From the NCBI GenBank assembly GCA_022703585.1, contig JAKLDJ010000001.1, positions 374,891 through 438,890 of the forward strand: 64,000 bases of DNA, given 5' to 3'. The notes below the pieces were generated by a model. The model searched no databases. It saw nothing but the letters and a program-made list of their open reading frames with translations, and was not told where the DNA came from. This document shows positions 42,559 to 58,182 of the stretch, in pieces (the stretch's first letter is position 1; every line of letters starts with the position of its first letter). A program made the translations under genes and the position numbers. This stretch comes from Candidatus Omnitrophota bacterium. GTDB lineage: Bacteria > Omnitrophota > Gorgyraeia > Zapsychrales > JAKLDJ01.

Positions 42559-42720
42559 TCTACCTCGCCTCTCGCCTATTAATGTCCAGACTGGAAATTA
42601 AATTAATAGGTACGACGACTGCAGCAGAATTAAAGTAAATGTTTGTTTTTTGATTTAACCGACGGACGGAACGATAAAGGCCTTTGCAGGAAGGCCGGCT
42701 GAATTCGTGGGAATTTGAGG

Positions 42721-42750
42721 CATAAAAAATCCCCTGTAATTGCGCAGGGG
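42721..42750 (-). terminator. Second hairpin plus U-tract (minus strand) in the leader of the giant gene; possible attenuator.
   Basis: cccctg (42731-42736) and cagggg (42745-42750) form a 6-bp stem with an 8-nt loop. On the minus strand this is followed by AUUUUUUAUG (revcomp of cataaaaaat, 42721-42730). It lies 165-190 nt upstream of the giant-gene ATG. Confidence 0.3.
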
Positions 42751-42798
42751 ACAACCGAAAAAAGATAATAAAAAGCCTATTAATCAAAGACTCTATAA

Positions 42799-42960
42799 TC
42801 CGTGGCTTTTGAGTTCTTGTTTGCACTGTCCTTTTCTCCGTGGCTTTTGCTGCTTTTTGATACTCGAAAAAAAGATAGGCTGCCGAATCCTCGACGGTTT
42901 CGGCAGCCCGAACTACATCACTTAAAAAAACAAATGTTTTTTAAGTTTTCCGTGGCTTTG
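42799..42960. promoter_or_regulatory. Three direct copies of TCCGTGGCTTT(T)G in the intergenic leader upstream of the giant gene; candidate transcription-factor sites.
   Basis: tccgtggcttttg at 42799-42811 and 42837-42849, and tccgtggctttg at 42949-42960. A related copy ccccgtggctta lies at 54189-54200, upstream of the flp pilin array. Confidence 0.3.
42865..42908 (-). terminator. Intrinsic-terminator-like hairpin plus U-tract on the minus strand, between tadC and the giant gene.
   Basis: ggctgccgaa (42878-42887) pairs perfectly with ttcggcagcc (42899-42908) around an 11-nt loop. On the minus strand the stem is followed by UAUCUUUUUUUCG (revcomp of cgaaaaaaagata, 42865-42877). Confidence 0.5.
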
Positions 42961-43721
42961 CTCACTTCGTAATCTTTCTTTTGGAAGTTCGCCTTTATCG
43001 TTCCGTCTGCAATTTAAATATATCATATAGTATATGGTTGTCAAGCCGGCAGCACCGGCCTAAAACACCCAATCATCAAGCACATCAATGACTTACGTAA
43101 TTGGCGAAAGAATTTTAAATTTTTTTAGAAAATTTTTCCAAAGCCGCTTTCTTTGCGGAGATTTTTGCCTTTTTTATACGGCATGCCGATTGGATTTGAT
43201 CATGATTTCCGCATTCGTCACCATGGGAAATACGGCGTTTTTTAAGAAAGCGATCGCCTCAAAATGACCCGATAAGATATTTTTCCGTCGGAAGCAATGT
43301 TATTTCCGTCGGAGAATGTAAGAAATCTTCTTGGGCCAATCAAATGAGAGAAAGAAAAAAGACGGACAGAAGGCCGGCTCCGCAACTCTTGAATTTAAAA
43401 TGCACGGCTTGAACGCCCTCACGCGCGCATCAAAAAACATGCATCAAGAGAATAAAAACGGAAAAATATACACAGAGCCTGGAGGAAAATATGCCCGGCC
43501 CCGGAAGAGTTTATTTCTTGCGGATTTTCGGGTAGAGAGATATTTAAGAAGATGGGCTTTAGAAATCAGCTGAAACTATTGAAGATTATGCCTTGGTTTC
43601 TTTCTTTGGACATTTCTATACGAATTTTTTATAAATTGGACATTATAATTCGGGATTTCCTGTTGAATTTAGCACAGAAAATGTCCATACTAAAGCAGTT
43701 ACCGATTGGCGCCTAAATGTT

Positions 43722-44720
43722 TTATTTTACACCCAATTGTCTCATTGGATTATTGTTGGTAAAATCGAGGAAAATAGGGGCGCCGACAAGAATGGCGACA
43801 ACGGGGAAAATACAAAACAAGAGCGGGACCAGCATCTTCATGGGAGCCTTAAGGGCAATTTGTTCGCCTCTCCTAAAGCGGGCCACGCGCATATCTTCCG
43901 AAATGATAGTCAGGGCCTCCGCCACCGAAGTACCCATGCGGTCAGCCTGAATAAGAGTGCGGGTAAATGTGGTTAAGTCCGGCAATTCGTATTTTTTTCC
44001 TAAGTCGGCTAAAGCAACCCTTCTGGGTTTGCCGACATTAATCTCCTGCATGATTAAATTCATCTCGTCAATTAAGACCGAGGGCTTCGATTTGTCGACA
44101 ACCCACTTGAGAGCCAGCATAAAATCCAGCCCGGCATTAACGCACAAGCCCAAAAGGTCGATGGTGTCGGGAAGTTCTTTGACAATAGACTCTTTGATTT
44201 TCTTCGTCCTGGCCTTAAGCCAAAACTCCGGTACCAAATAACCGAAACAAAAACCAAAACCCGCCCAGGCAAATATCATATCCGGCTTTATAAGCCTGAA
44301 GGTAAGGGCCAGCACCGCGGCCATGCATAATTCTTTTATGAGAAAAAATCCTTCCGGGGTAAGGTCAAGCTTGGCAATATTAAGGTCCCTGGCCATTCTT
44401 TTTCCCAAAGGGCCGAGGGTAAAGGGCCGGTTAAACATCGAAAAATGCCGGAATGCCGTCGAGAGGGTGGATCTTTTTTTCTTGTCAATCTTGACCTCGG
44501 GCTCGACATTAAGCGGCTGCAAACGCAGGCGCGTCGTCGGCGTCTCAAAGGGCGCGAAAAAAAGAACCAGGCAGATAACAGAAAGAAAAACAAATCCTAA
44601 AATAATGGCGAGCATAGGCTCCTTATATAAGACCGAATTGACCCTGCTTCGCCAAATACTTAACATGTTTGGCTTCGCAGGGTTATACCCCCTACCTCTT
44701 TGTTTCGCTTCGCTACACAA
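43722..44720 (-). CDS. tadC: TadC-like Flp pilus assembly inner-membrane protein (T2SS F-domain family).
   Basis: 332-aa ORF with a polytopic membrane profile and a C-terminal GspF/TadC-type region (...LIQADRMGTSVAEALTIISEDMRVARFRRGEQIALKAPMKMLVPLLFCIFPVVAILVGAPIFLDF). Sits directly downstream of the tadB-like gene. Confidence 0.75.
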   Translation of the reverse strand: MCSEAKQRGRGYNPAKPNMLSIWRSRVNSVLYKEPMLAIILGFVFLSVICLVLFFAPFETPTTRLRLQPLNVEPEVKIDKKKRSTLSTAFRHFSMFNRPFTLGPLGKRMARDLNIAKLDLTPEGFFLIKELCMAAVLALTFRLIKPDMIFAWAGFGFCFGYLVPEFWLKARTKKIKESIVKELPDTIDLLGLCVNAGLDFMLALKWVVDKSKPSVLIDEMNLIMQEINVGKPRRVALADLGKKYELPDLTTFTRTLIQADRMGTSVAEALTIISEDMRVARFRRGEQIALKAPMKMLVPLLFCIFPVVAILVGAPIFLDFTNNNPMRQLGVK

Positions 44721-44739
44721 AGCGAAACAGTAGGGGTCA

Positions 44740-45597
44740 TTAAAACTCCTTAAACGTACTGATCCTCCATATCATAAAAACGCCCAAGACCTCCAGGAAA
44801 ACAGCCAGAATAAGAAGCATTCTCCCCACATCAGAATTAATCAGCTGGTCAAAGAAATTTTTGTTGGAAGAAGTGACCACGGCCGCAAAGGCAATGGGCA
44901 GGATCGACATGACCACTCCCTGGATTTTCCCCTGAAGGGTCAGATTATCGATATTTTGCTTAATCTTTTTGTTTTCCCGTATGGTGGTAACAATGCGGCT
45001 AAAAATAACAGGCAGGTTGCCGCCGGTTTCTCGGGCCAAAAGAATCGCGGTAATCATATGGTGCAGCGCCGTCGAGGGCATCCGGCTGTAGAGGCGCGCA
45101 AATGATTCTTCCAGGGAAATCCCCATTTTGTTTTCGCCTAAAAGGGTCCCGAATTCCTGGCTGACGGGAGCGGGCATTTCTTCTTTGACCACCTCCAGGG
45201 CCTGGATTAAGCTTAAGCCTCCTTTTAAAGAGCTGGATAAAATCATCAGGGTGTCTACCAGCTGGTCTTCGAATTTGGCGGTGCGCTTTTGGGTCAAGAA
45301 TTTAACATAGACGCTGGGCGCCAAAAATCCGACGACAGCGCCGGCGACAACCCCTAAAAGCTTGATCTCGGCAGGAAACGCCATAAATCCGGTAACAGCC
45401 AAAATAATGGGCCCGACCGTGTAAAAGAGTATGACACGCCTGACCCGGACCTTGATAAACATCTCATCCATGCGTTCGGCAAGTTCCCGGGAACGTCTTT
45501 TATTCATCTCTTCGATGTTTCCGTAGATGGGGGGAATGACCGAAAAAGAGAATACGGCCACGGAACCGAATATCAACAGCATGATAATAAGCCACAT
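44740..45597 (-). CDS. tadB: TadB-like Flp pilus assembly inner-membrane protein (T2SS F-domain family).
   Basis: 285-aa ORF with N-terminal TM helices and a T2SSF-like core (...LGENKMGISLEESFARLYSRMPSTALHHMITAILLARETGGNLPVIFSRIVTTIRENKKIKQNIDNLTLQGKIQGVVMSILPIAFAAVV...). Paired with the tadC-like gene, 19 nt apart. Confidence 0.75.
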   Translation of the reverse strand: MWLIIMLLIFGSVAVFSFSVIPPIYGNIEEMNKRRSRELAERMDEMFIKVRVRRVILFYTVGPIILAVTGFMAFPAEIKLLGVVAGAVVGFLAPSVYVKFLTQKRTAKFEDQLVDTLMILSSSLKGGLSLIQALEVVKEEMPAPVSQEFGTLLGENKMGISLEESFARLYSRMPSTALHHMITAILLARETGGNLPVIFSRIVTTIRENKKIKQNIDNLTLQGKIQGVVMSILPIAFAAVVTSSNKNFFDQLINSDVGRMLLILAVFLEVLGVFMIWRISTFKEF

Positions 45598-45642: not shown

Positions 45643-46047
45643 TTAGTTACATTGTGGATTTGCACAAGGGGTCACGCAATACTCGTTACAATGCTCCTCG
45701 CAGCAGTCGGCATTATGTCCGCACGCCGTGTTGGGGTTAGGGCTATGACTGCCGCAAGGATTCCAATTATTATGATCCATGCAATTATGTGCGCATTGAT
45801 CGGAATAGTTCGTATGGCATTGGGGGACATACCACCTTCCCAGGTCTTCGCTCCAGATGCATTCAACCGTTTTTTTAGGGTCGTATTGCATCCCGAAACC
45901 GAAGGAATCGGCTGACGCCTTCCAGCGCCCGGCAAAACCGCGCAGGACATACTGCCGTCCGGCGACAAAAGCCGCGATCAGAATAACGATAAGCATCGTG
46001 TATTCGATCATGGAAGCGGCTCTTTTATTACCTTTACGCATCGTCAT
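45643..46047 (-). CDS. Flp-like pilin paralog with a Cys/His-rich C-terminal extension (12 Cys in the last roughly 60 aa).
   Basis: N-terminus MTMRKGNKRAASMIEYTMLIVILIAAFVAGRQYVLRGFAGRWKASADSFG parallels the xxxxEY plus hydrophobic helix plus RGIQGRWK pattern of the flp array genes. C-terminus ...CHTNYSDQCAHNCMDHNNWNPCGSHSPNPNTACGHNADCCEEHCNEYCVTPCANPQCN. The start overlaps the stop of the upstream TadG-like gene (TAATG), indicating translational coupling. Confidence 0.55.
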   Translation of the reverse strand: MTMRKGNKRAASMIEYTMLIVILIAAFVAGRQYVLRGFAGRWKASADSFGFGMQYDPKKTVECIWSEDLGRWYVPQCHTNYSDQCAHNCMDHNNWNPCGSHSPNPNTACGHNADCCEEHCNEYCVTPCANPQCN

Positions 46048-49000
46048 TAAAATTCGTCACTGCACCTTGAAAATTTGACGTTAAACCCGTACGGGTCCTC
46101 CTGGTGAAAGAAGTACTCCGCGCAGGTTTTACTCATTACGCCCCGGTAGAGAAAGTGGCGTACAATATTATAACACGCCGTTATCTCCGGCGGATCGGCA
46201 ACATCATTAATCATAAAAGCACCCTGATTACCGGGATCACACGCGGCTTCCAGTTGCGTAATACGTTCCGGGGTAATGCTGTCCCGGTCCGCGTGGTGGG
46301 CAATAAAGCGCCAGATAGGAACCTTGTTGGCAAACGTCAAAAGGGCGTCTTTGTCCTCGTCATAGCGGATAACGCGGGATTTGACCGCGCCGCCCCTGAA
46401 ACAAACTCTGGCATTGCTGCCTTCATGATACTCCCCGGGTTCATCGCAAGCGCTATTGGGCGCTCCGTCGGAGTATTGGTCAAAACTATCTCCCAGGGTA
46501 TAGCATTTGCGCGTACCCCAGTTTTTAGTATAGGTCTTAATCCACGGCCAACTCGGCTCATGGGTATAGCCCTGAGATGCCCTCGCACATTTTCCGTTGC
46601 ATCGGGTGGGCAAGCGCGCCTCAACCTGCACAATATGCCAGTAGCCTTTCCCGGCAAACTGCCCGGGCCGCGGCGTCTCCGGAGGGTCACTGCGCCAGGC
46701 GTAAATCGCGTATGGGGCCAGGTCCGCGTCGTCCTCAGGATTCACATTGACTCTGTTATACTCAGTCGTAACACCCGTGACTGCGGGACTGTTAACAAAA
46801 GTATGAAATGCGTCTCTATAGCGGTTGAGGGTGGCGATAACGCTGGTGACATTATTAATTGTCCTGTCCAGAAAATCCGCACGAAAACGATGCATGGCGG
46901 CCTCATTCGCCTCGCCATGCCAGTACTCCTGTACACACGCCAACTCAGCAGCCTGACAGGAGCCGCTTAAGTTGCATGGGTTTCGGAGCGAATAGCAGGC
47001 CGGATAGCTGTAGTTGCAATGAGCATAACAGTCGGCGTATTGGTTCGCAGTAGTATCATGCGCCGGAGCCCTGGTATTGCGATGGCAATCGGCGATCTGA
47101 CTAATTGTGCGGGCGGGGTTGTAATTCGGGTTACATTCGTAACTACTATTTCCGTGATAACTACGATTAGCCCAATCCGAAAGAGTATTGCTCCATTCAT
47201 TAAAAACACTGCCCGAACTCCCGTAATCGTCCAATACCCCGCCAGGCCCTACCCAGGAAAGAAATTCCGGGTACCAGGATAGAAATGACCTCGCAAGTTC
47301 GTCGGATCCTTGCGCCAATATCCCTAAACTCCAAGAAGTAAAATCGGTGAGACTGCGGCGAAGCAAATCGGCCTCATCTTCGCTCCAAAGAACCTTGTAG
47401 TACCGCTCGGGCCACGTCCCCGGGATGCTCTCGCATTCGTTACTATAAATCGAACAGATCCCGGCCGACTCTGTACATGAGGTGCAGGTCCTATCGCACT
47501 CCTTTCCCGGACAGGGGGTGCTGTAGGGCCAGTTGTCGTCATCTTTGGTGCAGTATTGGACATCACCTCTTTTCCACCATCCCGGGGGATACGTTGATTC
47601 ACCGGGACATTTTAGGACTTCATTTCCGTCAGGGGGAACAACGGGTTTTCTTATTCCTGACGCGTTGGGAACATTATCAAAAGTGCTGGGTACAAAACAG
47701 GTAAGCGGCGACGCATTATCACATGCGTAGGGGAGCTCGAGATGGCCCACCGCGGCATAGGGAAAATCATTATTATTGCAGTAGGCATAGGTGTTATTCC
47801 AGACATATTGCGGTGTAGCCCAATAGCAAAAATCAACATAATGCTCAAATTCATCATAGATAGCGCTAAAATCAAGGCTTGCCCTGGCTGCCGCGTCCCA
47901 TAGCGTCGGGAAAAATGCCCCTTTCAGGTCATCGCGCCTGAAACGAAAAGGATGCGTGGTGCGGTCCAAAATCTGCGGCCCGTTAGGATTGAGCGGGTTT
48001 GTCCTGTAATACGGTGTTTCATCGTCGTGGCCAAGAAACTTTCTAAAAGACAAGAAACCGATATTCGGGTCTTCATGGAGGGCATTAAAGACGTACGGAT
48101 AACCGCCCGTAGAATACCCGCCAGCAATATTGGGATAGATACCGGAACAGTTTGCTGAGCTGCCGCAAGAGGGCGTAGCGGGATCGGGACAATCAGAACC
48201 GCCATCGCAACAGCACGGCCTCACGTTTGGCGGAACACAGCAGCGATTGCATTCAGCGGGAGGATTGGCTCCGCAACAAGCGCTTGCATGCTGCGGAGGA
48301 ACGGGCGCTGTGGTTTCGGAACAATAAATCAGGGTAGGATCCGCAACCGCAAAAAGGTCGGTGTGCACGACCCGTACCGGCTCAGGGGGCGGATTAGGAG
48401 GAACCGTGGGCGGCTGTTCATAGTATATGTACGGCTCTAAGAGAAACGCCCCCAGGGCCCTCTGGAAATCCTGCAATATGTCACGATTGAGGATGCGCCT
48501 GTTCGCAAATTTTGCGTTCATCCGCTGGGTGTAAAAATACCCGAAACGGTTGACCTCTTCGTTGAGTATACCGTCCATGTCGATGTCTTTGGTGTCGAGA
48601 AGCTCGCTGGTATCATCAACGCTATATTGAAGAGCCATCTGAATTCCGCGTTCGACAAATTGGTCTGCCGGCGTCTCAAGCTGTGCCATTTGTTTATTCC
48701 ATAAGGAATTCATACCGGGCTGAAGGACAAGCGCCTGGAGCAGAATGGAACCAACCGAGAGAATCAGAAAGATAATTCCTTTAGCGGTAGCAAATGCCGC
48801 AAAGGTAAGCGTCCCTCCGGAAGTAATGGAAATAACAGTGGCAATGACAAGAATGATGAGGGCTAGTACTGCCGCTGCGACTCCTGTCCATCCGCAGACG
48901 GTTAAATCATCTCCGGCGTTAGGGTCGGGATTTCCCTCGGGCCCGCCCAACTGGCCCTGATAAACACTTTCGGCATAGCTGGCCATACCCGAGGCCAAAA

Positions 49001-49298
49001 AAGCGGCGCTGATATTGGAGGCCATGGTCACCTGGGTTTTTGTCTGCGAGATTCTGCCCAGGTTGAGAACCACGGCATAAAAGATAAATAAAATCGCCAC
49101 CATCACAATCAGCAATAGGGCTACCTGACCCGCCTCGGCTCCCCCTCCATCGCTTCGCGACGAGATCTCGGCGAAGCCGGACCTCGTCGAGCTTGCCCTG
49201 AGTCCCTCGATTTTGCTCGGGATAAACTTCGTCGAGGCTGGGCCGGTTCGACTTGAGGATAAAATCTTCTTTGTTATTTTGTTTAAAAAGCTAAGCAA
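46047..49298 (-). CDS. Giant TadG-like pseudopilin or tip-adhesin candidate, 1083 aa, with a cysteine-rich ectodomain.
   Basis: The N-terminal segment ...GAEAGQVALLLIVMVAILFIFYAVVLNLGRISQTKTQVTMASNISAAFLASGMASYAESVYQGQL matches the TadE/TadG N-terminal helix pattern. The remainder is Cys-dense (for example CCGANPPAECNRCCVPPNVRPCCCDGGSDCPDPATPSCGSSANCSG) with many aromatic residues. Confidence 0.65.
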   Translation of the reverse strand: MLSFLNKITKKILSSSRTGPASTKFIPSKIEGLRASSTRSGFAEISSRSDGGGAEAGQVALLLIVMVAILFIFYAVVLNLGRISQTKTQVTMASNISAAFLASGMASYAESVYQGQLGGPEGNPDPNAGDDLTVCGWTGVAAAVLALIILVIATVISITSGGTLTFAAFATAKGIIFLILSVGSILLQALVLQPGMNSLWNKQMAQLETPADQFVERGIQMALQYSVDDTSELLDTKDIDMDGILNEEVNRFGYFYTQRMNAKFANRRILNRDILQDFQRALGAFLLEPYIYYEQPPTVPPNPPPEPVRVVHTDLFAVADPTLIYCSETTAPVPPQHASACCGANPPAECNRCCVPPNVRPCCCDGGSDCPDPATPSCGSSANCSGIYPNIAGGYSTGGYPYVFNALHEDPNIGFLSFRKFLGHDDETPYYRTNPLNPNGPQILDRTTHPFRFRRDDLKGAFFPTLWDAAARASLDFSAIYDEFEHYVDFCYWATPQYVWNNTYAYCNNNDFPYAAVGHLELPYACDNASPLTCFVPSTFDNVPNASGIRKPVVPPDGNEVLKCPGESTYPPGWWKRGDVQYCTKDDDNWPYSTPCPGKECDRTCTSCTESAGICSIYSNECESIPGTWPERYYKVLWSEDEADLLRRSLTDFTSWSLGILAQGSDELARSFLSWYPEFLSWVGPGGVLDDYGSSGSVFNEWSNTLSDWANRSYHGNSSYECNPNYNPARTISQIADCHRNTRAPAHDTTANQYADCYAHCNYSYPACYSLRNPCNLSGSCQAAELACVQEYWHGEANEAAMHRFRADFLDRTINNVTSVIATLNRYRDAFHTFVNSPAVTGVTTEYNRVNVNPEDDADLAPYAIYAWRSDPPETPRPGQFAGKGYWHIVQVEARLPTRCNGKCARASQGYTHEPSWPWIKTYTKNWGTRKCYTLGDSFDQYSDGAPNSACDEPGEYHEGSNARVCFRGGAVKSRVIRYDEDKDALLTFANKVPIWRFIAHHADRDSITPERITQLEAACDPGNQGAFMINDVADPPEITACYNIVRHFLYRGVMSKTCAEYFFHQEDPYGFNVKFSRCSDEF

Positions 49299-49361
49299 TC
49301 TTTCTCCTTGAATCTTGTTACGTCAAATTTGCCCTAACCCTTTATTTTAAAAACCTTAAAC

Positions 49362-49625
49362 CTACCATTTGTTGAAAACCAAGTTTAAAGGGGTCGGTTT
49401 GGAAAAATTCGTTCTCAGCTGTCTTAACGGGCCTTCGCCCTCATTCTCCCAATTCTCGTTGATACCCATATTCAGAGTAGTTTCGTGGGCGACCTGACGC
49501 TCGGATAGGCTTAACCCCACCCAGCGAAATGCCATGATGCACCCGTAAAAAATCAGAAGCAGGACAACAAAAGCAAACGTGAATTCGATGATAACCTGCG
49601 CGTCATGTTGTTTAGAGTTTTTCAT
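49362..49625 (-). CDS. tadE: TadE-like minor pseudopilin (87 aa).
   Basis: MKNSKQHDAQVIIEFTFAFVVLLLIFYGCIMAFRWVGLSLSERQVAHE... shows a TadE-like N-terminal hydrophobic helix after a charged leader. Confidence 0.6.
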   Translation of the reverse strand: MKNSKQHDAQVIIEFTFAFVVLLLIFYGCIMAFRWVGLSLSERQVAHETTLNMGINENWENEGEGPLRQLRTNFSKPTPLNLVFNKW

Positions 49626-49684
49626 TTTAGCTGTCAGCTTTCAGCTGTCAGCTTTCAGCTGCTGAGAGCTGATAGCTGGTGGCT

Positions 49685-51115
49685 TTACTTAAATGGATTC
49701 TTATCCGTACTGACATCCGTCACCCATTTTTTCTTAGCCCGGTCCTCAATTTTACTTCGTATGTGAAGAATTTTAGTGCTTCGGTCAAAACAAGTCTTAA
49801 AAACATTGTCATTGCTATAGCAACAACTCCCCGCATCGCAGCAGGCTTCAACCGGATTGCTGCCGTTACACATACGCCCTGTATCATTGCTGAGCTGTAT
49901 CTGCCGCTCGATAACCTCAATGCTATCCTGTTTCCGGGTCTGACGGACATACTGCCTGGTGTCGGGGGTAAAAAGCTTGCCTTCTTCTACCCGAAGATAT
50001 GTACCGGTATCCCCGGGGCCGGCCGGCTTGCCATAAACATACAAAAATGATTCCGGTTTCAAGCCCGGCTGAGGCTTACCGTTTTGCCTATCGCGCGTGT
50101 CATAGGTATTATCAATATCGCCTTCTTGCTGGTCAATAACTGTAACCTCCTTAAAAGCCGCATGGAACATGGCGCCAGACCGGACAAGGTTGTGGTATCC
50201 CTCCGCTCCTTCGTCACCTACAAACCAATCGATTGTCTCCGGGATGGGCTCTTTAAGAGTATATGTAAAGTTGTTTGTATCGACCATGCGGACAATGGAC
50301 TCTTCCTTAAGATCTCCGTCAACATCCAGGGATGTATTCTTGCCGTCATTAAAATCAATTTCCGAGTTGGTCATAGGGATGGCGTACCACTCCCAGGTAA
50401 ACTCGTCTGTTTGAGCCGGTTCGACATCCATCCCCGCAGTACATCCGACGGCAGCACATTGGGTCAGGGTGTTGCGGTCCAAATTAAACCTGTCTTCCAG
50501 GGTATTTCGAGTATCGCCGGTTGCCAGAGGTGAACATCCAAAGGGATTCAAGCTGCAAAAATTGTCGTCACCATAAACTATTCTCGTATATGCCTTTGCG
50601 CAATTTATTGCGCCCCCGCTAGGGCCATTTCCACAGCCGGCAGAGTCTGATATGATTATCGGAGTGGGCAGGCTACCGCAAAATCCAGTCACAAAATTAC
50701 AAGTTTTAAACTGGGCAGTCGTAAAGGTAAAATGCTGGCCGTTGATAAAAACATCCATGATGGAAAGGTTTTCGGGGTGGTCATGCTGGGTGGGCATAAA
50801 AAGATTATTGGTAAAAGCCCCCGCCCCGCTGGTCACAAAAGGCATACGCGACGAAGTTAAATACCGGCCGCTACTTGAGACATCGGCGTCTTTTCTGTCT
50901 TCGATATATAGGATGCTGGAAAACATCCGCGAGGCGTTTCCCCCGGTGCCGGACCGAAAAGACTGCTCAAAAGCCAGCCGCATGGCCCCCAGCGCCTGGT
51001 TTTGGGCATAATTAAAATTAAGCGCCATGCGAATAATCAGGCCCAAAACAAAAATCAGGATAGCCCCGAAAATCGCGAGTTCGGAAGCCGTCTGACCTTT
51101 GGGAATGCATTTCAT
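49685..51115 (-). CDS. TadE/TadG-like pseudopilin, 476 aa, with a Cys-rich extracellular domain.
   Basis: N-terminus MKCIPKGQTASELAIFGAILIFVLGLIIRMALNFNYAQNQALGAMRLAFEQSF is TadE-like. The body contains CNFVTGFCGSLP, AGCGNGPSGGAINCAKAY, FCSLNPFGCSP and CAAVGC motifs, and the tail has EACCDAGSCCY. Confidence 0.6.
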   Translation of the reverse strand: MKCIPKGQTASELAIFGAILIFVLGLIIRMALNFNYAQNQALGAMRLAFEQSFRSGTGGNASRMFSSILYIEDRKDADVSSSGRYLTSSRMPFVTSGAGAFTNNLFMPTQHDHPENLSIMDVFINGQHFTFTTAQFKTCNFVTGFCGSLPTPIIISDSAGCGNGPSGGAINCAKAYTRIVYGDDNFCSLNPFGCSPLATGDTRNTLEDRFNLDRNTLTQCAAVGCTAGMDVEPAQTDEFTWEWYAIPMTNSEIDFNDGKNTSLDVDGDLKEESIVRMVDTNNFTYTLKEPIPETIDWFVGDEGAEGYHNLVRSGAMFHAAFKEVTVIDQQEGDIDNTYDTRDRQNGKPQPGLKPESFLYVYGKPAGPGDTGTYLRVEEGKLFTPDTRQYVRQTRKQDSIEVIERQIQLSNDTGRMCNGSNPVEACCDAGSCCYSNDNVFKTCFDRSTKILHIRSKIEDRAKKKWVTDVSTDKNPFK

Positions 51116-51179: not shown

Positions 51180-51494
51180 TTAGTACCCAAACACCTTCAT
51201 GGAGCCGTCTTGCCGCTCGACGGAGCTGGAATCATCATACCGGTTCGTCCAAAATTGGCCTGCCCCTTGCTGGACCGTGATCCTGGTCTGAGAATTTTGC
51301 TCCATGGTATACAAAATATTCGTTGTCGTATTGGTACTGTCGTACTGATCGCCTAAGTCCTCAACCGAGGCCTTCCACCGCCCCTGGATAGCCCGCTTAA
51401 GATACACCCCTCCGACGATGAGGGCCCCCATGACCACGATTAATAAAATAGCATATTCGGTTAGAGACTGGCCGTTTTTTCTTATCCGCAGCAT
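51180..51494 (-). CDS. flp: Flp-family pilin paralog (104 aa).
   Basis: MLRIRKNGQSLTEYAILLIVVMGALIVGGVYLKRAIQGRWKASVEDLG carries the class-III prepilin motif G/QSLTEY followed by a hydrophobic helix. Confidence 0.65.
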   Translation of the reverse strand: MLRIRKNGQSLTEYAILLIVVMGALIVGGVYLKRAIQGRWKASVEDLGDQYDSTNTTTNILYTMEQNSQTRITVQQGAGQFWTNRYDDSSSVERQDGSMKVFGY

Positions 51495-51515
51495 TCCTAT
51501 CCCTCTTAAGTTTCT

Positions 51516-51860
51516 TTATTCCTGGTTAACAACACCGCCCTTGGTAACCGCGTTAGCGCGCGTCCGGGCCACGTCCCGGTAGAGGTATTCCAGGGAAGTG
51601 ACACCTTTTGTTTCCCGGACCTCTTTGGTCGAGCGCCCCCGCCTGTCACTAAATGTCCCCAACAGATAGCTTTTTTCCTCGTCCACTTCCTGATCGGCGT
51701 TGCTTTGCTGGCCCAGCTGGTCGGCGGTTACCTTGACGATAGATTGTATCCCGCGTTTGACCAAAGGCTGCATGGCCGCCAGCGCCACGGCAACGATGCC
51801 GATCAAGATGATGTATTCCGATATCGTTTGGGCCTCTTTTTGTTCTTTTAAAATAAACAC
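51516..51860 (-). CDS. Flp-like pilin paralog (114 aa; A instead of G at the cleavage position).
   Basis: MFILKEQKEAQTISEYIILIGIVAVALAAMQPLVKRGIQSIVKVTADQLG has the same architecture with AQTISEY. Confidence 0.5.
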   Translation of the reverse strand: MFILKEQKEAQTISEYIILIGIVAVALAAMQPLVKRGIQSIVKVTADQLGQQSNADQEVDEEKSYLLGTFSDRRGRSTKEVRETKGVTSLEYLYRDVARTRANAVTKGGVVNQE

Positions 51861-51880
51861 ATGTACCCCGTCAAAATTCC

Positions 51881-52270
51881 TTAACGCGCATCCTTGGGCG
51901 GCAACTGGATACTGTTGGTAACAACCGCTGTCCTGTCTTTATAGACCTGCTCATAAGTAAATCCTTCCCACGGATGCTTATACACATTAAGCTGCCGGGT
52001 AGAATCCCGGGTTACGTCAGAGGCAGATTGGGTATAATAAGGCTCATATTCTTTAGGGATTCTTGCGGGCGTTTGGGCCGTAGCATTCCGCGTCTGAACG
52101 TAGGCATCGTTGGCTTTGGTGATCATATAGTCTTTTGTGTCTTTGATGCGGGCCTGGATGGACCTCTTAACAATTGCTGTTACGGCCATAATGACGGTCA
52201 CCGCTAACGCAACGGTGACGGTGTATTCGTTAATGATCTGGGCTTTGCGGTTTTTTATCGGTCTGGGCAT
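51881..52270 (-). CDS. Flp-like pilin paralog (129 aa).
   Basis: MPRPIKNRKAQIINEYTVTVALAVTVIMAVTAIVKRSIQARIKDTKD shows the AQIINEY motif plus a hydrophobic helix. Confidence 0.5.
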   Translation of the reverse strand: MPRPIKNRKAQIINEYTVTVALAVTVIMAVTAIVKRSIQARIKDTKDYMITKANDAYVQTRNATAQTPARIPKEYEPYYTQSASDVTRDSTRQLNVYKHPWEGFTYEQVYKDRTAVVTNSIQLPPKDAR

Positions 52271-52389
52271 ATTCTCTACTGAATATTATATTATTTTTAA
52301 AGAAATCCGGAGTAAAAAAATAAAAGCTTTTAGAAATGCCGGCCGGTCTCATTCGTTGTTGCCCGCAAATAGTATTTGGCGTTTGCTGC

Positions 52390-52424
52390 TTTGGGTGGGC
52401 GGCCCTAAGGGCCGCCCACCCAAA
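52390..52424. promoter_or_regulatory. Perfect 16-bp-stem, 3-nt-loop palindrome between two pilin genes; an attenuator or RNA-stability stem-loop (no U-tract follows).
   Basis: tttgggtgggcggccc taa gggccgcccacccaaa lies 87 nt downstream of the stop of the 52511..52837 pilin gene and upstream of the next pilin gene. Confidence 0.5.
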
Positions 52425-52510
52425 CCGATTTATCCTTATCTCCTTTTTAAAAAAAACTGGCTTACCCAAAAAGCGAGGCTTCCCGGGTAAGCCAGTCTTT
52501 GGGGATCTTT

Positions 52511-52837
52511 TTACCTACCCCAGTATTCGCCTCCAGCTGCGTTCATAATAAACTGATTCCTGAAGATGTTGGTAGTTTCGTTCCCGACAATCGTTGAGCT
52601 TTGCACACCTCTGTTAAAGGTCTCTCTCGTCGAGGAAGACGTTCTGGTAACCTTATTCATGAACGTTTCCATGGTAGAGTACTGCTCGCCGATGTTATCG
52701 GCTGAATCCTTGAAACGGCCCTGAATACCTCTTTTGATGTAGATTTGTATGGATATCAAAGCACCGATAATGATAATAATCAAAATCGCGTATTCTACCG
52801 TGCTTTGTCCTCTGCTTTTCTTTAAGAATTTAAACAT
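52511..52837 (-). CDS. flp: Flp-family pilin paralog (108 aa); candidate major pilin because a strong stem-loop follows it.
   Basis: MFKFLKKSRGQSTVEYAILIIIIIGALISIQIYIKRGIQGRFKDSADNIG has the G/QSTVEY motif. An SD-like GGGAGGTGAA sits just upstream. Confidence 0.65.
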   Translation of the reverse strand: MFKFLKKSRGQSTVEYAILIIIIIGALISIQIYIKRGIQGRFKDSADNIGEQYSTMETFMNKVTRTSSSTRETFNRGVQSSTIVGNETTNIFRNQFIMNAAGGEYWGR

Positions 52838-52903
52838 CTTTTGTTCACCTCCCTTTTAGTAACGGGTATTCCCCGTTGTTCACCTAAGCCTATAGAGAAC
52901 ACC

Positions 52904-53257
52904 CTATTCCAGGACCCCGTTATAGGCGAAGTTCTGGTAACCAGAACGTTTAATGTTCATGTCGCTAACGTACTGAAGACCCGTCGCCGCCCTAGCGTTT
53001 TGGAATTCTGTATCCACCGCCTCGCGTCCAACGTTAAAATCGGTCGTCAGGTACCCGGGTTCAAACTGGCTGGTATTACCTATGCCTTCACCGCTACCTT
53101 GGTTAACCAGGTATTTTGAGGCATCGTAAATCCTGGCCTGCAACGTCCTTTTGGCATACTGCTGCATGGCAATAACCGCAGCCACGACCAGAGCGATAAG
53201 AATCGCGTATTCGGCCGTGCTTTGTCCTCTTTTTCTATTTCTTAGCTTTCTAAGCAT
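52904..53257 (-). CDS. flp: Flp-family pilin paralog (117 aa).
   Basis: MLRKLRNRKRGQSTAEYAILIALVVAAVIAMQQYAKRTLQARIYD has the G/QSTAEY motif. AGGAGGTGAAAA lies upstream (revcomp of 53262-53273). Confidence 0.65.
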   Translation of the reverse strand: MLRKLRNRKRGQSTAEYAILIALVVAAVIAMQQYAKRTLQARIYDASKYLVNQGSGEGIGNTSQFEPGYLTTDFNVGREAVDTEFQNARAATGLQYVSDMNIKRSGYQNFAYNGVLE

Positions 53258-53299
53258 CGATTTTCACCTCCTAATAAATGACACGTTAAATACTTCCTT

Positions 53300-53494
53300 T
53301 TAATGGGAACCTTTGAGACGATTAGCCATATTCTCCATCCCCTGGCTGGCATCCTGATACGTCGAGTTGAGCGCGGTTCTAAACACCCCGCTGGGCTTTA
53401 GAAACACGATCAGAATCGCGATAACACCGGCCACTAGGATGAGATACTCCATCGTGCTTTGACCTCTTTTTCTACTTCTTAGCTTTCTAAGCAT
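53300..53494 (-). CDS. flp: Flp-family pilin (64 aa, canonical size).
   Basis: MLRKLRSRKRGQSTMEYLILVAGVIAILIVFLKPSGVFRTALNSTYQDASQGMENMANRLKGSH has the G/QSTMEY motif. AGGAGGTGAAAATCA SD lies upstream. Confidence 0.7.
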   Translation of the reverse strand: MLRKLRSRKRGQSTMEYLILVAGVIAILIVFLKPSGVFRTALNSTYQDASQGMENMANRLKGSH

Positions 53495-53552
53495 TGATTT
53501 TCACCTCCTAAACAAGAGTTTATGCTACCCCTCACTTGAGCAGGAATACTGC

Positions 53553-53711
53553 TTAATTCCTGTCAAACTCCTCCTCAATCGTTTTCTGGGTCGCTTGAAC
53601 CGAACGATACACGTAGGTGCTCATCGCGATTAACGCGGCTGAAACCAGGGCAATAATAACGGCATATTCGATTAGGTTTTGTCCTCGTTTATTTTTTATC
53701 GAATGCCGCAT
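53553..53711 (-). CDS. flp: Flp-family pilin (52 aa), absent from the supplied ORF track because it is under 60 aa.
   Basis: Hand translation gives ATG at 53711..53709 and stop TAA at 53555..53553, producing MRHSIKNKRGQNLIEYAVIIALVSAALIAMSTYVYRSVQATQKTIEEEFDRN. The G/QNLIEY motif is present. It is the first gene of the tandem pilin array. Confidence 0.6.
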   Translation of the reverse strand: MRHSIKNKRGQNLIEYAVIIALVSAALIAMSTYVYRSVQATQKTIEEEFDRN

Positions 53712-54065
53712 GCCGCCCTTTTTTCGCACCTCGCCTGACAGAAAACGAGTTTCGCCCCTTCCTTCGAAGCCCGGTAATCTTTGGCCTTCACAAATTCGGG
53801 AGCTTTATTTGTCCCGCCTGAAACCGCGGAACCCATGCGTCTTTCTTTGTTTATACGGCCGATAACGGCGGTAAAGAAAAACGCGCGGATTAAACACCCG
53901 ACCTAATCCCTTGTTTGTCGTTTATGGATTTTAGCTCAAAAAATAAAAACGGCCGACGAAACAACGGTTAAGGACATGGTGTTGAAATCTTTGCAAAAAT
54001 TGTCAAGACTTCGATTTCTCGACGATGAATCTCGACGCCGCGCCCGACCGGCGCCCAACAGTACT

Positions 54066-57837: not shown

Positions 57838-58182
57838 TTATTCCCCGAGCTTGATTAAATCTCCGATGGCAGTGCAGGAACGTTTGATAGTCCCGGCGGG
57901 AACTTCAATCACAAAATTTGCTTTTAAAAAAACAGGGCTGAGCCTAAACGGCCTTAAGTTCTCGGTTAATCCCACCACATAATTTCTCTCGTCGACAAAT
58001 AGCGCATCGATTGCAAATCGCATAAAAAACATGTGAATGGAACAGCATCTCGGGATCACCAGGCCCTCGCCTTCTTTAAGACAGGCGCGGCCCAAAAGAC
58101 CCTTGGCCCTCGCCCAAAAACCTTCTGCCAACTCGCCTTCTCGGGCAATAAAAGTATTTTTGCTTACGTTACGAATCTGCAT
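57838..58182 (-). CDS. DUF192-family protein (114 aa).
   Basis: ...ARAKGLLGRACLKEGEGLVIPRCCSIHMFFMRFAIDALFVDERNYVVGLTENLRPFRLSPVFLKANFVIEVPAGT matches the DUF192/COG1430 pattern (GLM-R, sIHM, LD-lF-D). Confidence 0.6.
   Translation of the reverse strand: MQIRNVSKNTFIAREGELAEGFWARAKGLLGRACLKEGEGLVIPRCCSIHMFFMRFAIDALFVDERNYVVGLTENLRPFRLSPVFLKANFVIEVPAGTIKRSCTAIGDLIKLGE

Follow-up and report, generated by a model that had tools for sequence, protein, structure and literature searches.

F1083 and F476, proteins of 1083 and 476 amino acids encoded within a Tad/Kil-like operon of a Candidatus Omnitrophota bacterium, appear to belong to the minor pilins of a Tad/Kil-type (type IVc) pilus conserved across Omnitrophota, where they would initiate the filament and cap it as a priming/tip complex resembling Myxococcus KilLMN; we favour this reading with modest confidence. 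Both genes lie in the window (the whole 64,000-nucleotide stretch of DNA that was analysed), among the pilin genes of a Tad-type operon as originally predicted, and Pfam recognises RcpC, the RcpA secretin, a TadZ-TadA fusion, TadB and TadC in the same operon:

43722..45597, minus strand: TadB-like (285 aa) and TadC-like (332 aa) platform proteins (Pfam T2SSF)
45643..46047, minus strand: p134, small Cys-rich pilin, 12 Cys (9%) (sequence; hhalign)
46047..49298, minus strand: F1083, most likely a TadG/GspK-class pilin-like protein, 1083 aa, 42 Cys (ORF, TTG start)
49362..49625, minus strand: p87, small TadE-like minor pilin, A|QVIIEFTF (sequence; Pfam TadE E=0.013)
49685..51115, minus strand: F476, most likely a large minor pilin, 476 aa, 15 Cys (ORF, ATG start)
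51180..53257, minus strand: five paralogous Cys-free pilins, 104-129 aa, N-termini [KR][GA]|QSTxEY (sequence)
53300..53729, minus strand: two Flp-type pilins (64 and 58 aa), candidate major pilins (Pfam Flp_Fap, Class_IIIsignal)
58192..63842, minus strand: TadZ-TadA fusion ATPase, RcpA secretin with a TonB_C domain, RcpC and a SurA-like PPIase (Pfam)

The genes run in the order RcpA, TadZA, p978, Flp, five ~110-aa pilins, F476, the ~87-aa p87, F1083, the ~134-aa p134, TadB and TadC, an order common to ~70 Omnitrophota species and strict in nearly all of 73 GTDB-representative loci (ORF and HMM scan). Eleven of the genes are pilin-like. p87 sits between F476 and F1083, a position that it also holds in ~56 related loci, and the start of p134 overlaps the stop codon of F1083; p134, whose family has a median of 8 Cys, aligns with the five mid-size pilins in hhalign at a probability of 96-99.5%. 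A search of the window and of 78 related loci turned up no prepilin peptidase gene, a weak negative because it used one distant query. The two ORFs are intact at the lengths first reported, with no frameshift, and four independent public assemblies are 100% identical over the 21.4 kb around them. This absence of strain-level variation at the locus counts against the tip/priming reading.

Judging from its sequence and its structural model, F476 is most likely a true large minor pilin. It has at least 151 Omnitrophota relatives, all named 'hypothetical', and the family motif is (A/G)|QTAxEL, with Ala or Gly at -1 in 46 of 48 members, Gln at +1 in 46 of 48 and Glu at +5 in 47 of 48, while 56 of 59 members have a single transmembrane segment. 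The TadE/TadG-type N-terminus ascribed to this protein is thus upheld as regards the prepilin-type site and Glu5, but not by profile searches: F476 has no TadE or Tad HMM match, and one of 48 relatives reaches E=0.087. AlphaFold yields a pilin-like architecture, a 53-residue N-terminal helix (residues 5-57) followed by a beta-rich head (pLDDT 78.5, pTM 0.76). Two features within the gene are relevant here:

51026..51097, minus strand: predicted prepilin peptidase site and alpha1N, G|QTASELAIFGAILIFVLGLI, F476 residues 7-30 (family alignment)
50300..50326, minus strand: DVDGDLKEE acidic loop, putative Ca2+ site, F476 residues 264-272 (conservation)

F1083 is most likely a TadG/KilN/GspK-class subunit, an assignment drawn from sequence and analogy. 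It consists of a 57-aa leader, a G|Q site, a long N-terminal helix, a hydrophobic hairpin, an acidic loop, Cys-rich regions and a C-terminal alpha/beta domain:

49053..49130, minus strand: G(-1)/Q(+1) site and first hydrophobic helix, F1083 residues 57-82 (family alignment)
48708..48896, minus strand: conserved Cys and ~55-residue uncharged hydrophobic helical hairpin, F1083 residues 135-197 (alignment)
48558..48614, minus strand: acidic loop D-x5-D-x2-D-x-D-x-D-G (DxDxDG-like), putative Ca2+ site, F1083 residues 229-247 (conservation)
48147..48323, minus strand: cysteine knot region, 13 Cys, with CCxxxPPxxCxxCC and CCCDG, F1083 residues 326-384 (sequence)
46050..46712, minus strand: conserved C-terminal alpha/beta domain, F1083 residues 863-1083 (high pLDDT)

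Its TTG follows an AGGAGA Shine-Dalgarno sequence, and no other in-frame start precedes the conserved G57-Q58 motif. NCBI calls the identical 1083-aa product ('hypothetical protein'); the shorter versions from alternative gene callers, 1018 or 992 aa, would truncate the conserved N-terminal helix. Exhaustive phmmer searches return 456 relatives, the family ranging from 913 to 1724 aa. At the family's site, Gly occupies -1 in 38 of 40 members and Gln +1 in 39 of 40, and the +5 residue is Leu instead of Glu (I/V/L/M in 40/40 relatives), a hydrophobic +5 found in F1083 alone among the 11 pilin-like proteins of the locus. F1083 is also by far the largest of these, and among the pilin genes its own is located close to the 3′ end. 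Given that most T2SS/T4P systems have one minor pilin that lacks Glu5, is the largest, is encoded by the 3′-end gene and is proposed to be the first subunit (PMC5207764), F1083 may be read as the first, tip-most subunit.

The TadG-type N-terminus predicted for F1083 likewise stands in part. Pfam Tad (PF13400) aligns in register with its G|Q site and hydrophobic helix, as does a Rhizobium 'Tad domain-containing protein', a name that NCBI also gives to one F1083 homologue; Tad is the top family across F1083 members (4/40, best E=1.4e-5). However, the hit on F1083 itself (residues 57-91, E=0.013) scores 16.2 bits, below the cut-off of 22.3. More broadly, the profile searches proposed beforehand gave no TadE, Tad or vWA match to F476 or F1083 at curated cut-offs, and the claimed N-termini fail the HMM test set for them at the outset. 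Pfam detects no vWA or any adhesin domain in 40 F1083 members, and no adhesin, lectin or vWA domain was detected in the F476 or F1083 families. The AlphaFold model of F1083 (pLDDT 74) finds nothing in the PDB below E=0.3 with Foldseek, and that of F476 has no structural match there; hence no likeness of the two proteins to GspK or known pilins is seen at the fold level.

The extreme Cys richness attributed to F1083 is borne out, with 42 Cys (3.9%); F476 has 15 (3.2%), one in the leader peptide and 14 in the mature part, and the remaining proteins of the locus have 0.1-1.2%. Against a 1% background, the Poisson probability of such an excess is 5e-13 for F1083 and 1e-4 for F476. Both expected motifs are present in F1083, in CCGANPPAECNRCC (residues 341-354) and in CCCDG (residues 362-366). 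C350 and C384 are invariant, C326, C353, C354 and C364 are conserved at 90% or above, and 26 of the 42 Cys recur in 80% or more of relatives; the C-terminal domain, which together with the N-terminal helix is among the most conserved regions, has invariant Cys at 900, 904, 1042 and 1059. The cysteine count proposed as a check gave even numbers in most orthologues: 54/59 for F476 (P=1e-11), 35/43 for F1083 (P=2e-5) and 37/46 for p134 (P=2e-5). Other compositional claims fared less well: F1083 is no more than moderately rich in Trp (2.0%) and Tyr (5.2%), and F476 contains no literal CxxxC pair, its clusters being Cx6C, Cx4C and CCx4CC. The Cys enrichment, the even counts and the acidic, Asp-rich loops resembling Ca-binding sites are family-wide. 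In the F1083 loop, D229, D235 and D238 are present in 40/40 relatives, D240 in 37/40 and D242 in 38/40; in that of F476, whose region shows weak similarity to the YesW/YesX repeat region, the counts are 48/48 for D264, 47/48 for D266, 45/48 for D268 and 45/48 for E272.

The closest counterpart is found in the Kil Tip complexes of Myxococcus xanthus, which KilL, KilM and KilN, homologues of TadE, TadF and TadG, form with many predicted disulfides (Herrou et al. 2025, PMC12075869), the likeness being one of features and not of compared sequences. Each system is of Tad type and occurs in a presumed predator, and each combines a small TadE-like pilin with a pilin whose head is extended and with a single, very large pilin (KilN in Myxococcus, PMC12075869) that includes a domain lacking a PDB homologue; both have many predicted disulfides and minor pilins that diverge between species. 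In contrast to Kil, F1083 is larger and has a conserved hydrophobic hairpin, the 11 pilin-like genes include five additional pilins of middle size and a small one rich in Cys, and a single gene set was seen within the Omnitrophota loci examined, as opposed to four paralogous Tip sets in Myxococcus. As with TadG/PF13400 proteins of canonical tad loci, the hydrophobic helix of F1083 is followed, in register, by an N/D-x-G motif and an Ala/Ser-rich helix, and F1083 is the largest pilin-like protein of a tad locus, beside a TadE-like gene. Unlike them, it falls below the Pfam cut-off, lacks a vWA domain, has ~4% Cys and an extra membrane hairpin, is two to three times the usual length, and is encoded before tadB/tadC, not after. 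It resembles the GspK-family tip pseudopilins of type II secretion and type IVa pili as the sole Glu5-less minor pilin, much larger than the others and at the 3′ end of the pilin genes, although it is ~three times larger than GspK and Cys-rich, with no match in sequence or fold. GspK binds Ca, and F1083 carries an Asp-rich, putative Ca-binding loop. This loop may be similar in kind to the DxDxDG-type loop of PilY1, the tip adhesin of type IVa pili, which is likewise a large, non-canonical and tip-associated protein (a location inferred for F1083). PilY1 itself is not known to be a pilin; its Sec signal peptide, vWA domain and C-terminal beta-propeller have no counterpart found in F1083.

Could the Cys clusters bind metal or perform redox chemistry (metallothionein-like, Fe-S or Zn) in place of forming structural disulfides? 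Many Omnitrophota are reported as anaerobes, and vicinal CC and CCC are dense in F1083, with 13 Cys within 60 residues. Nevertheless, we regard this as very improbable: in 81-92% of orthologues the number of Cys is even, which points to pairing; neither CxxCH nor any other recognised metal-site motif occurs, and Pfam yields no match; an extracytoplasmic location is predicted for the region; and the Kil tip proteins are likewise predicted to be disulfide-rich (PMC12075869). A different arrangement, possible but in our view doubtful, would make F1083 a stationary inner-membrane protein with three membrane segments, outside the filament, whose ~890-residue disulfide-rich periplasmic domain serves as a trans-envelope part, e.g. 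for alignment or gating, replacing absent TadD/RcpB-type parts; the minor pilins would then be F476, p87 and p134. The hairpin, which comprises the second and third hydrophobic segments, invites this view. Hydrophobic segments number three in 28/43 members and two in 10/43, and the second has a mean Kyte-Doolittle value of 3-3.9; the region has low pLDDT in the AlphaFold model. Since simple pilins have no such hairpin, F1083 is not the simple pseudopilin that was originally proposed, and its extraction from the membrane into a filament is hard to picture. Glu5 is missing, and the conservation of F1083 at both its N-terminal region and its C-terminal domain suggests fixed partners; the latter also counts against a tip position, where one would expect a distal receptor-binding domain to be variable. 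On the other hand, the G|Q site is kept as in the true pilins of the locus, the lack of Glu5 together with the largest size and 3′-end position is the signature of a tip subunit (PMC5207764), and TadG/KilN is modelled as the backbone of tip complexes (PMC12075869). Moreover, no structural protein of the locus evolves faster than F1083 (0.25 bits per residue, followed by F476 at 0.43; TadB, TadC and TadZA, 1.0-1.4), which is unusual for a core scaffold.

The neighbourhood of the operon raises the question of whether it encodes an adhesive pilus at all. It immediately precedes a giant gene, called as 85,803 aa, on the same contig, a long open frame begins soon after TadC in 26/40 related loci, and West-Roberts et al. 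describe the locus ahead of Omnitrophota giant genes as conserved and type II secretion-like. A T2SS-like machine could thus be envisaged, in which a short periplasmic pseudopilus capped by F1083/F476, the cap being too large for the secretin, acts as a piston or dock to export or deploy the giant protein or associated hydrolases. GspK, bulky and without Glu5, has been proposed to stall at the secretin (PMC5207764), and the ~100-kDa head of F1083 is predicted to be heavily cross-linked; that so rigid a head may not pass the secretin also speaks against the tip reading. We nonetheless hold such a machine to be unlikely, given that the core components belong to the Tad type (Flp pilins, RcpC, RcpA, TadZ-TadA, and separate TadB and TadC proteins), that West-Roberts et al. 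report predicted membrane segments and SecA-like domains within the giant protein itself, and that a 1.1-kb low-GC spacer parts its gene from TadC. Furthermore, related Tad systems of the predators Myxococcus and Bdellovibrio make real pili that are used on prey; in Bdellovibrio, which also has a TadZA fusion, TadG is needed for efficient prey invasion.

In the priming/tip reading that we favour, a prepilin peptidase would cleave F476 after the Ala/Gly that precedes Gln1, its Glu5-bearing alpha1 helix would enter the filament core, and its beta-rich head, braced by ~seven disulfides and by acidic, Ca-site-like loops, would be exposed. Together with F1083, the TadE-like p87 and the Cys-rich p134, F476 would form a complex that primes Flp polymerisation on TadB/TadC and finishes at the distal tip of the pilus. 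The adhesin and specificity roles originally proposed for F1083 and F476 are plausible by analogy, and the fast evolution of both proteins is what exposed specificity determinants would be expected to show. Placed at the tip, the ~100-kDa disulfide-cross-linked ectodomain would meet the surface of a prey or host cell, or the neighbouring giant protein.

F1083 and F476, the Cys-rich proteins of 1083 and 476 aa after which we name their families, are probably new, oversized, Cys-rich variants of TadE/TadG-type minor pilins. They are encoded in an operon in which TadA, TadB, TadC, RcpA and RcpC were all found as neighbours of F1083 by Pfam matches.

Features of the operon and its downstream flank, listed from upstream to downstream (window coordinates)
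minus strand, SurA-like PPIase
minus strand, RcpC
60353-62014, minus strand, RcpA-type secretin with a C-terminal TonB_C domain, an unusual combination
58192-60351, minus strand, TadZ-TadA fusion (TadZA), 719 aa, TadZ (ParA/MinD-like) plus TadA (T2SSE ATPase)
57838-58182, minus strand, DUF192 protein, 114 aa, lying in the window locus between TadZA and p978
54438-57374, minus strand, unannotated 978-aa protein (p978)
51180-53729, minus strand, seven consecutive pilin genes, of which two Flp-type (58 and 64 aa) and five Cys-free mid-size paralogues (104-129 aa)
49685..51115, minus strand, F476, intact ORF, 476 aa, ATG start
minus strand, p87, TadE-like protein of 87 aa
46047..49298, minus strand, F1083, intact ORF, 1083 aa, TTG start
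45643-46047, minus strand, p134, pilin of 134 aa with 12 Cys (9%) and a Cys-rich C-terminal half
minus strand, TadB
minus strand, TadC
42598-43721, spacer of 1.1 kb and low GC between TadC and the giant gene

Recomputation reproduced both ORFs exactly and free of frameshifts, as the original prediction had them. The TTG start of F1083 is supported by the AGGAGA Shine-Dalgarno sequence immediately upstream, by its being the only in-frame start 5' of the family-conserved G57-Q58, and by the NCBI annotation of the same sequence (PL155_02560), whose product is 1083 aa; the starts of other gene callers, giving 1018 or 992 aa, would cut the conserved first helix. F476 is identical in sequence to PL155_02570, a 'hypothetical protein' of Candidatus Omnitrophota bacterium. 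Four independent assemblies (JGI 3300009771, SRR5007146, ERZ761563 and ERZ27257456) agree at every base over the 21.4 kb surrounding the genes, which rules out frameshifts and assembly artefacts; the ORFs are also kept across species. One clone recurs in public data (window 43700-64000; the four assemblies differ in sample and pipeline). Among these assemblies, which are 100% identical, no strain-level variation was found in the putative specificity genes.

Scanning one genome for each GTDB species gave 73 loci, of which 71 are labelled Omnitrophota/Omnitrophica or 'uncultured Planctomycetales/Planctomycetia', one 'bacterium' and one Candidatus Saccharibacteria. By ORF and HMM, the order RcpA, TadZA, p978, (Flp), f117, f108, f129, f114, f104 (the five mid-size pilins), F476, p87, F1083, p134, TadB, TadC is near-universal; among the loci of sufficient length for order to be judged, about 70 agree. 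The mid-size pilins are separate orthologues whose order is kept across about 70 species, with a small Flp-like ORF 5' of them in many loci. Almost every locus that reaches far enough upstream has a relative of p978 in the position after TadZA and before the pilins. The window's p978, which had no match in a Pfam search, begins with what by eye resembles a helix-turn-helix and continues with a long Pro/Glu-rich linker and a C-terminal part of ~450 aa. With a single distant Rhizobium query, an A24/TadV-type prepilin peptidase was detected neither in the window nor in loci L001-L078, which is mirrored in Bdellovibrio, where TadV is also reported absent from tad loci; a 2026 preprint describes the same unusual TadZ-TadA fusion there.

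An exhaustive phmmer search of 1.84 billion representatives returned 456 relatives of F1083, 155 of them at E<=1e-30; most are 1000-1700 aa long. The exhaustive search was needed, as a word-indexed one returned only F1083 itself and one relative, even with a 40-sequence profile. F476 has at least 151 relatives, every one of them unnamed or 'hypothetical', and none with a Pfam domain. Within the loci, members range from 381 to 709 aa (F476) and from 913 to 1724 aa (F1083). To judge from these sequences, both families are large, unannotated and Omnitrophota-restricted. They diverge far faster than the core components: bits per residue are 0.25 for F1083 and 0.43 for F476, against 1.39 for TadZA, ~1.0 for TadB/TadC and 0.76 for RcpA. 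The most conserved part of F1083 is its N-terminal helix (51-53% identity), then its acidic loop and C-terminal domain, while its length varies mainly at an insertion hot spot after residue ~771 (up to 242 aa).

Neither F476 nor F1083 of the window gave anything at threshold in Pfam and NCBIfam, and the TadE/TadG-type N-termini originally predicted are only faintly visible to HMMs. Pfam Tad (PF13400) aligns with F1083 residues 57-91 at 16.2 bits (E=0.013), under the gathering cut-off of 22.3; it matches 4 of 40 relatives (best E=1.4e-5), and one relative carries the NCBI name 'Tad domain-containing protein'. By hhalign, the F1083 N-terminus also aligns in register, weakly (E=0.015), with a Rhizobium protein of that name. 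For F476, no TadE (PF07811) match was obtained, the best relative (1 of 48) reaching E=0.087, and hhalign found no similarity to a Rhizobium TadE/TadG-family protein; p87 scores E=0.013 against PF07811, below cut-off. In TadG the N-terminal helix is commonly, though not universally, followed by an extracellular adhesion domain such as vWA; in F1083, all 40 members lack a vWA or other extracellular domain at E<0.1. For GspK homology of F1083, Pfam and NCBIfam gave no match, profile searches against PDB sequences (F476 and F1083) gave noise only, and Foldseek found no PDB match to the F1083 model below E=0.3.

The N-terminal profiles of F476 and F1083 share only a segment of ~25 residues with the mid-size pilins, in short, weak hhalign matches. 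The five mid-size pilins carry [KR][GA]↓QSTxEY, p87 the TadE pattern G/A↓QVxxEFTF, and p134 xSxxEY; profile comparison clearly identifies p134, whose ATG overlaps the stop codon of F1083, as a paralogue of the Cys-free mid-size pilins (probability 96-99.5%). F476 members have the prepilin peptidase motif G/A↓xxxxE, with Ala/Gly at -1 and Gln at +1 in 46/48 each and Glu at +5 in 47/48, followed by Leu-Ala at +6/+7 and a hydrophobic stretch, which is the single hydrophobic segment in 56 of 59 members. An AlphaFold2 model of F476 from a 48-sequence alignment (mean pLDDT 78.5, pTM 0.76) has one helix (5-57) and then a mostly beta head, a predicted architecture that would fit a type IV pilin.

In F1083, the corresponding site has Gly at -1 (38/40), Gln at +1 (39/40) and Ile, Val, Leu or Met at +5 (40/40); at the +5 equivalent, Glu is found in every other pilin-like family of the locus, and F1083 alone is hydrophobic there. 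Tad domain proteins have a single N-terminal membrane helix, whereas a Kyte-Doolittle scan, an untrained predictor, gives three hydrophobic segments in 28 of 43 F1083 members and two in 10 of 43. Common to the relatives is an uncharged, hydrophobic hairpin of ~55 residues, placed after the conserved 'DLTxCGWTG' and before 'QPGxTxxWNK', which to our knowledge is absent from simple pilins and canonical TadG. The AlphaFold2 model of F1083 (pLDDT 74.1, pTM 0.66) has the following regions.

Regions of the predicted F1083 structure (residues)
helix 56-116; low-confidence hydrophobic region 138-192; helices and short strands
Cys-rich coil region; helical region 640-850; confident alpha/beta domain 863-1083

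Both families also have acidic loops. In F1083 the loop is DxDxDG-like: D229, D235 and D238 are invariant, D240 and D242 almost invariant. F476 has two, an invariant DVDGDxxEE loop and a D-x-Q-x-G-D-x-D loop. Acidic loops of this kind bind Ca2+ in PilY1, GspK and GspG.

The window F1083 has 42 Cys (3.9%) and F476 has 15 (3.2%), one of them within the leader peptide, while Cys makes up 0.1-1.2% of the remaining locus proteins. F1083 carries the motifs CCGANPPAECNRCC and CCCDG, which bears out the CCxxxPPxxCxxCC and CCCDG clusters first noted; its content of Trp (2.0%) and Tyr (5.2%), said to be extreme, is not, and in place of the CxxxC pairs described for F476 we find Cx4C, Cx6C and CCx4CC. 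Median Cys per family is 48 (4.0%) for F1083, 12 (2.6%) for F476 and 8 (6.2%) for p134. Given that 26 of the 42 Cys of the window F1083 are kept in at least 80% of relatives, the conserved pattern argues for a fixed disulfide framework. Cys counts are even in 81% of F1083, 92% of F476 and 80% of p134 orthologues (binomial P of 2e-5, 1e-11 and 2e-5, respectively, with significance inflated by the kinship of the sequences). Binding of metal by the Cys clusters is unlikely because the counts are even; reading the sequence by eye, we saw no heme or metal motifs.

The locus holding F476 and F1083 is already described in outline and adjoins what appears to be the largest known gene. On the minus strand, a frame free of stop codons extends from 42597 past the left window end (at least 14,199 aa), and in the 1.17-Mb ENA contig ERZ761563 NODE_2 the gene is called as 85,803 aa; this is apparently the record giant gene that West-Roberts et al. 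2023 describe for Omnitrophota. GC over the 2 kb at 42001-44000 is 42% vs about 50% elsewhere, and the spacer may hold the giant gene's own promoter. A long open frame starts 0.3-1.5 kb after TadC in 26 of the 40 loci with adequate downstream sequence. West-Roberts et al. 2023 list gspD/E/F, rcpC, a Rotamase_2 PPIase and 'many small genes with class III signal peptides', and term the remaining locus proteins less well conserved; Seymour et al. 2023 describe an Omnitrophota Tad complex with affinity to those of predators.

Type II secretion systems and type IVa pili typically have a single minor pilin without Glu5; this pilin, the largest and with its gene at the 3' end of the cluster, has been proposed as the first subunit, at the very tip (Ng et al. 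2016, PMC5207764). Among the 11 pilin-like genes of the locus, F1083 resembles such a GspK-type tip subunit in lacking Glu5, in its largest size and in its 3' end position. In Myxococcus, the Kil Tad pilus carries a 'spearhead' tip made of the TadE/F/G-like KilL/M/N; KilN is a large pilin with an additional domain for which the PDB holds no homologue, Kil tips are predicted to be disulfide-rich, and models for other bacteria give comparable tips a backbone of TadG (Herrou et al. 2025, PMC12075869). In Bdellovibrio, which has the TadZA fusion and tad loci without TadV, depletion of TadG impairs prey invasion. From the GspK-type marks of F1083, the Kil tips and Bdellovibrio TadG, the best-supported reading by analogy is that F476, p87, F1083 and p134 would be the Omnitrophota version of a Tad priming/tip complex, with F1083 at its apex. 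We infer that F476 and F1083 may be processed by a prepilin peptidase, form a complex, lie at the tip and perhaps act as adhesins. Of the original prediction, the observation stands, and its interpretation as TadE/TadG-type tip proteins is partly supported.

The same features can be read otherwise. F1083 may be a fixed part of the machine, held in the inner membrane by its hydrophobic hairpin, although the marks shared with GspK-type subunits point to the pilus tip. A secretion-type piston or dock serving the giant protein fits the bulky cap and the tight linkage of the locus to giant genes. Much more speculatively, and in our estimate very improbably, the hairpin of a tip-located F1083 might be, rather than an anchor in the inner membrane, a shielded membrane-insertion element with which the Omnitrophota Tad tip breaches or docks into the prey envelope and hands over to the giant protein; colicin pore domains and type III translocators have hydrophobic hairpins that it would then resemble.

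Omnitrophota are ultra-small, widespread and uncultured bacteria with a presumed life as predators or parasites. Their giant genes include that for the largest predicted protein known, and this pilus/secretion locus nearly always precedes them. The published descriptions of the locus that we consulted cover genes for ATPase, secretin and platform and the 'small class III signal' ones, leaving the two largest pilin-like proteins unnamed. Added here are the assignment of F476 and F1083 as a probable priming/tip pair, kept in order in about 70 species and the fastest-evolving parts, and the unusual membrane hairpin in the TadG-like F1083. These provide targets for testing how Omnitrophota cells contact their hosts, and if the giant protein cooperates with the pilus.
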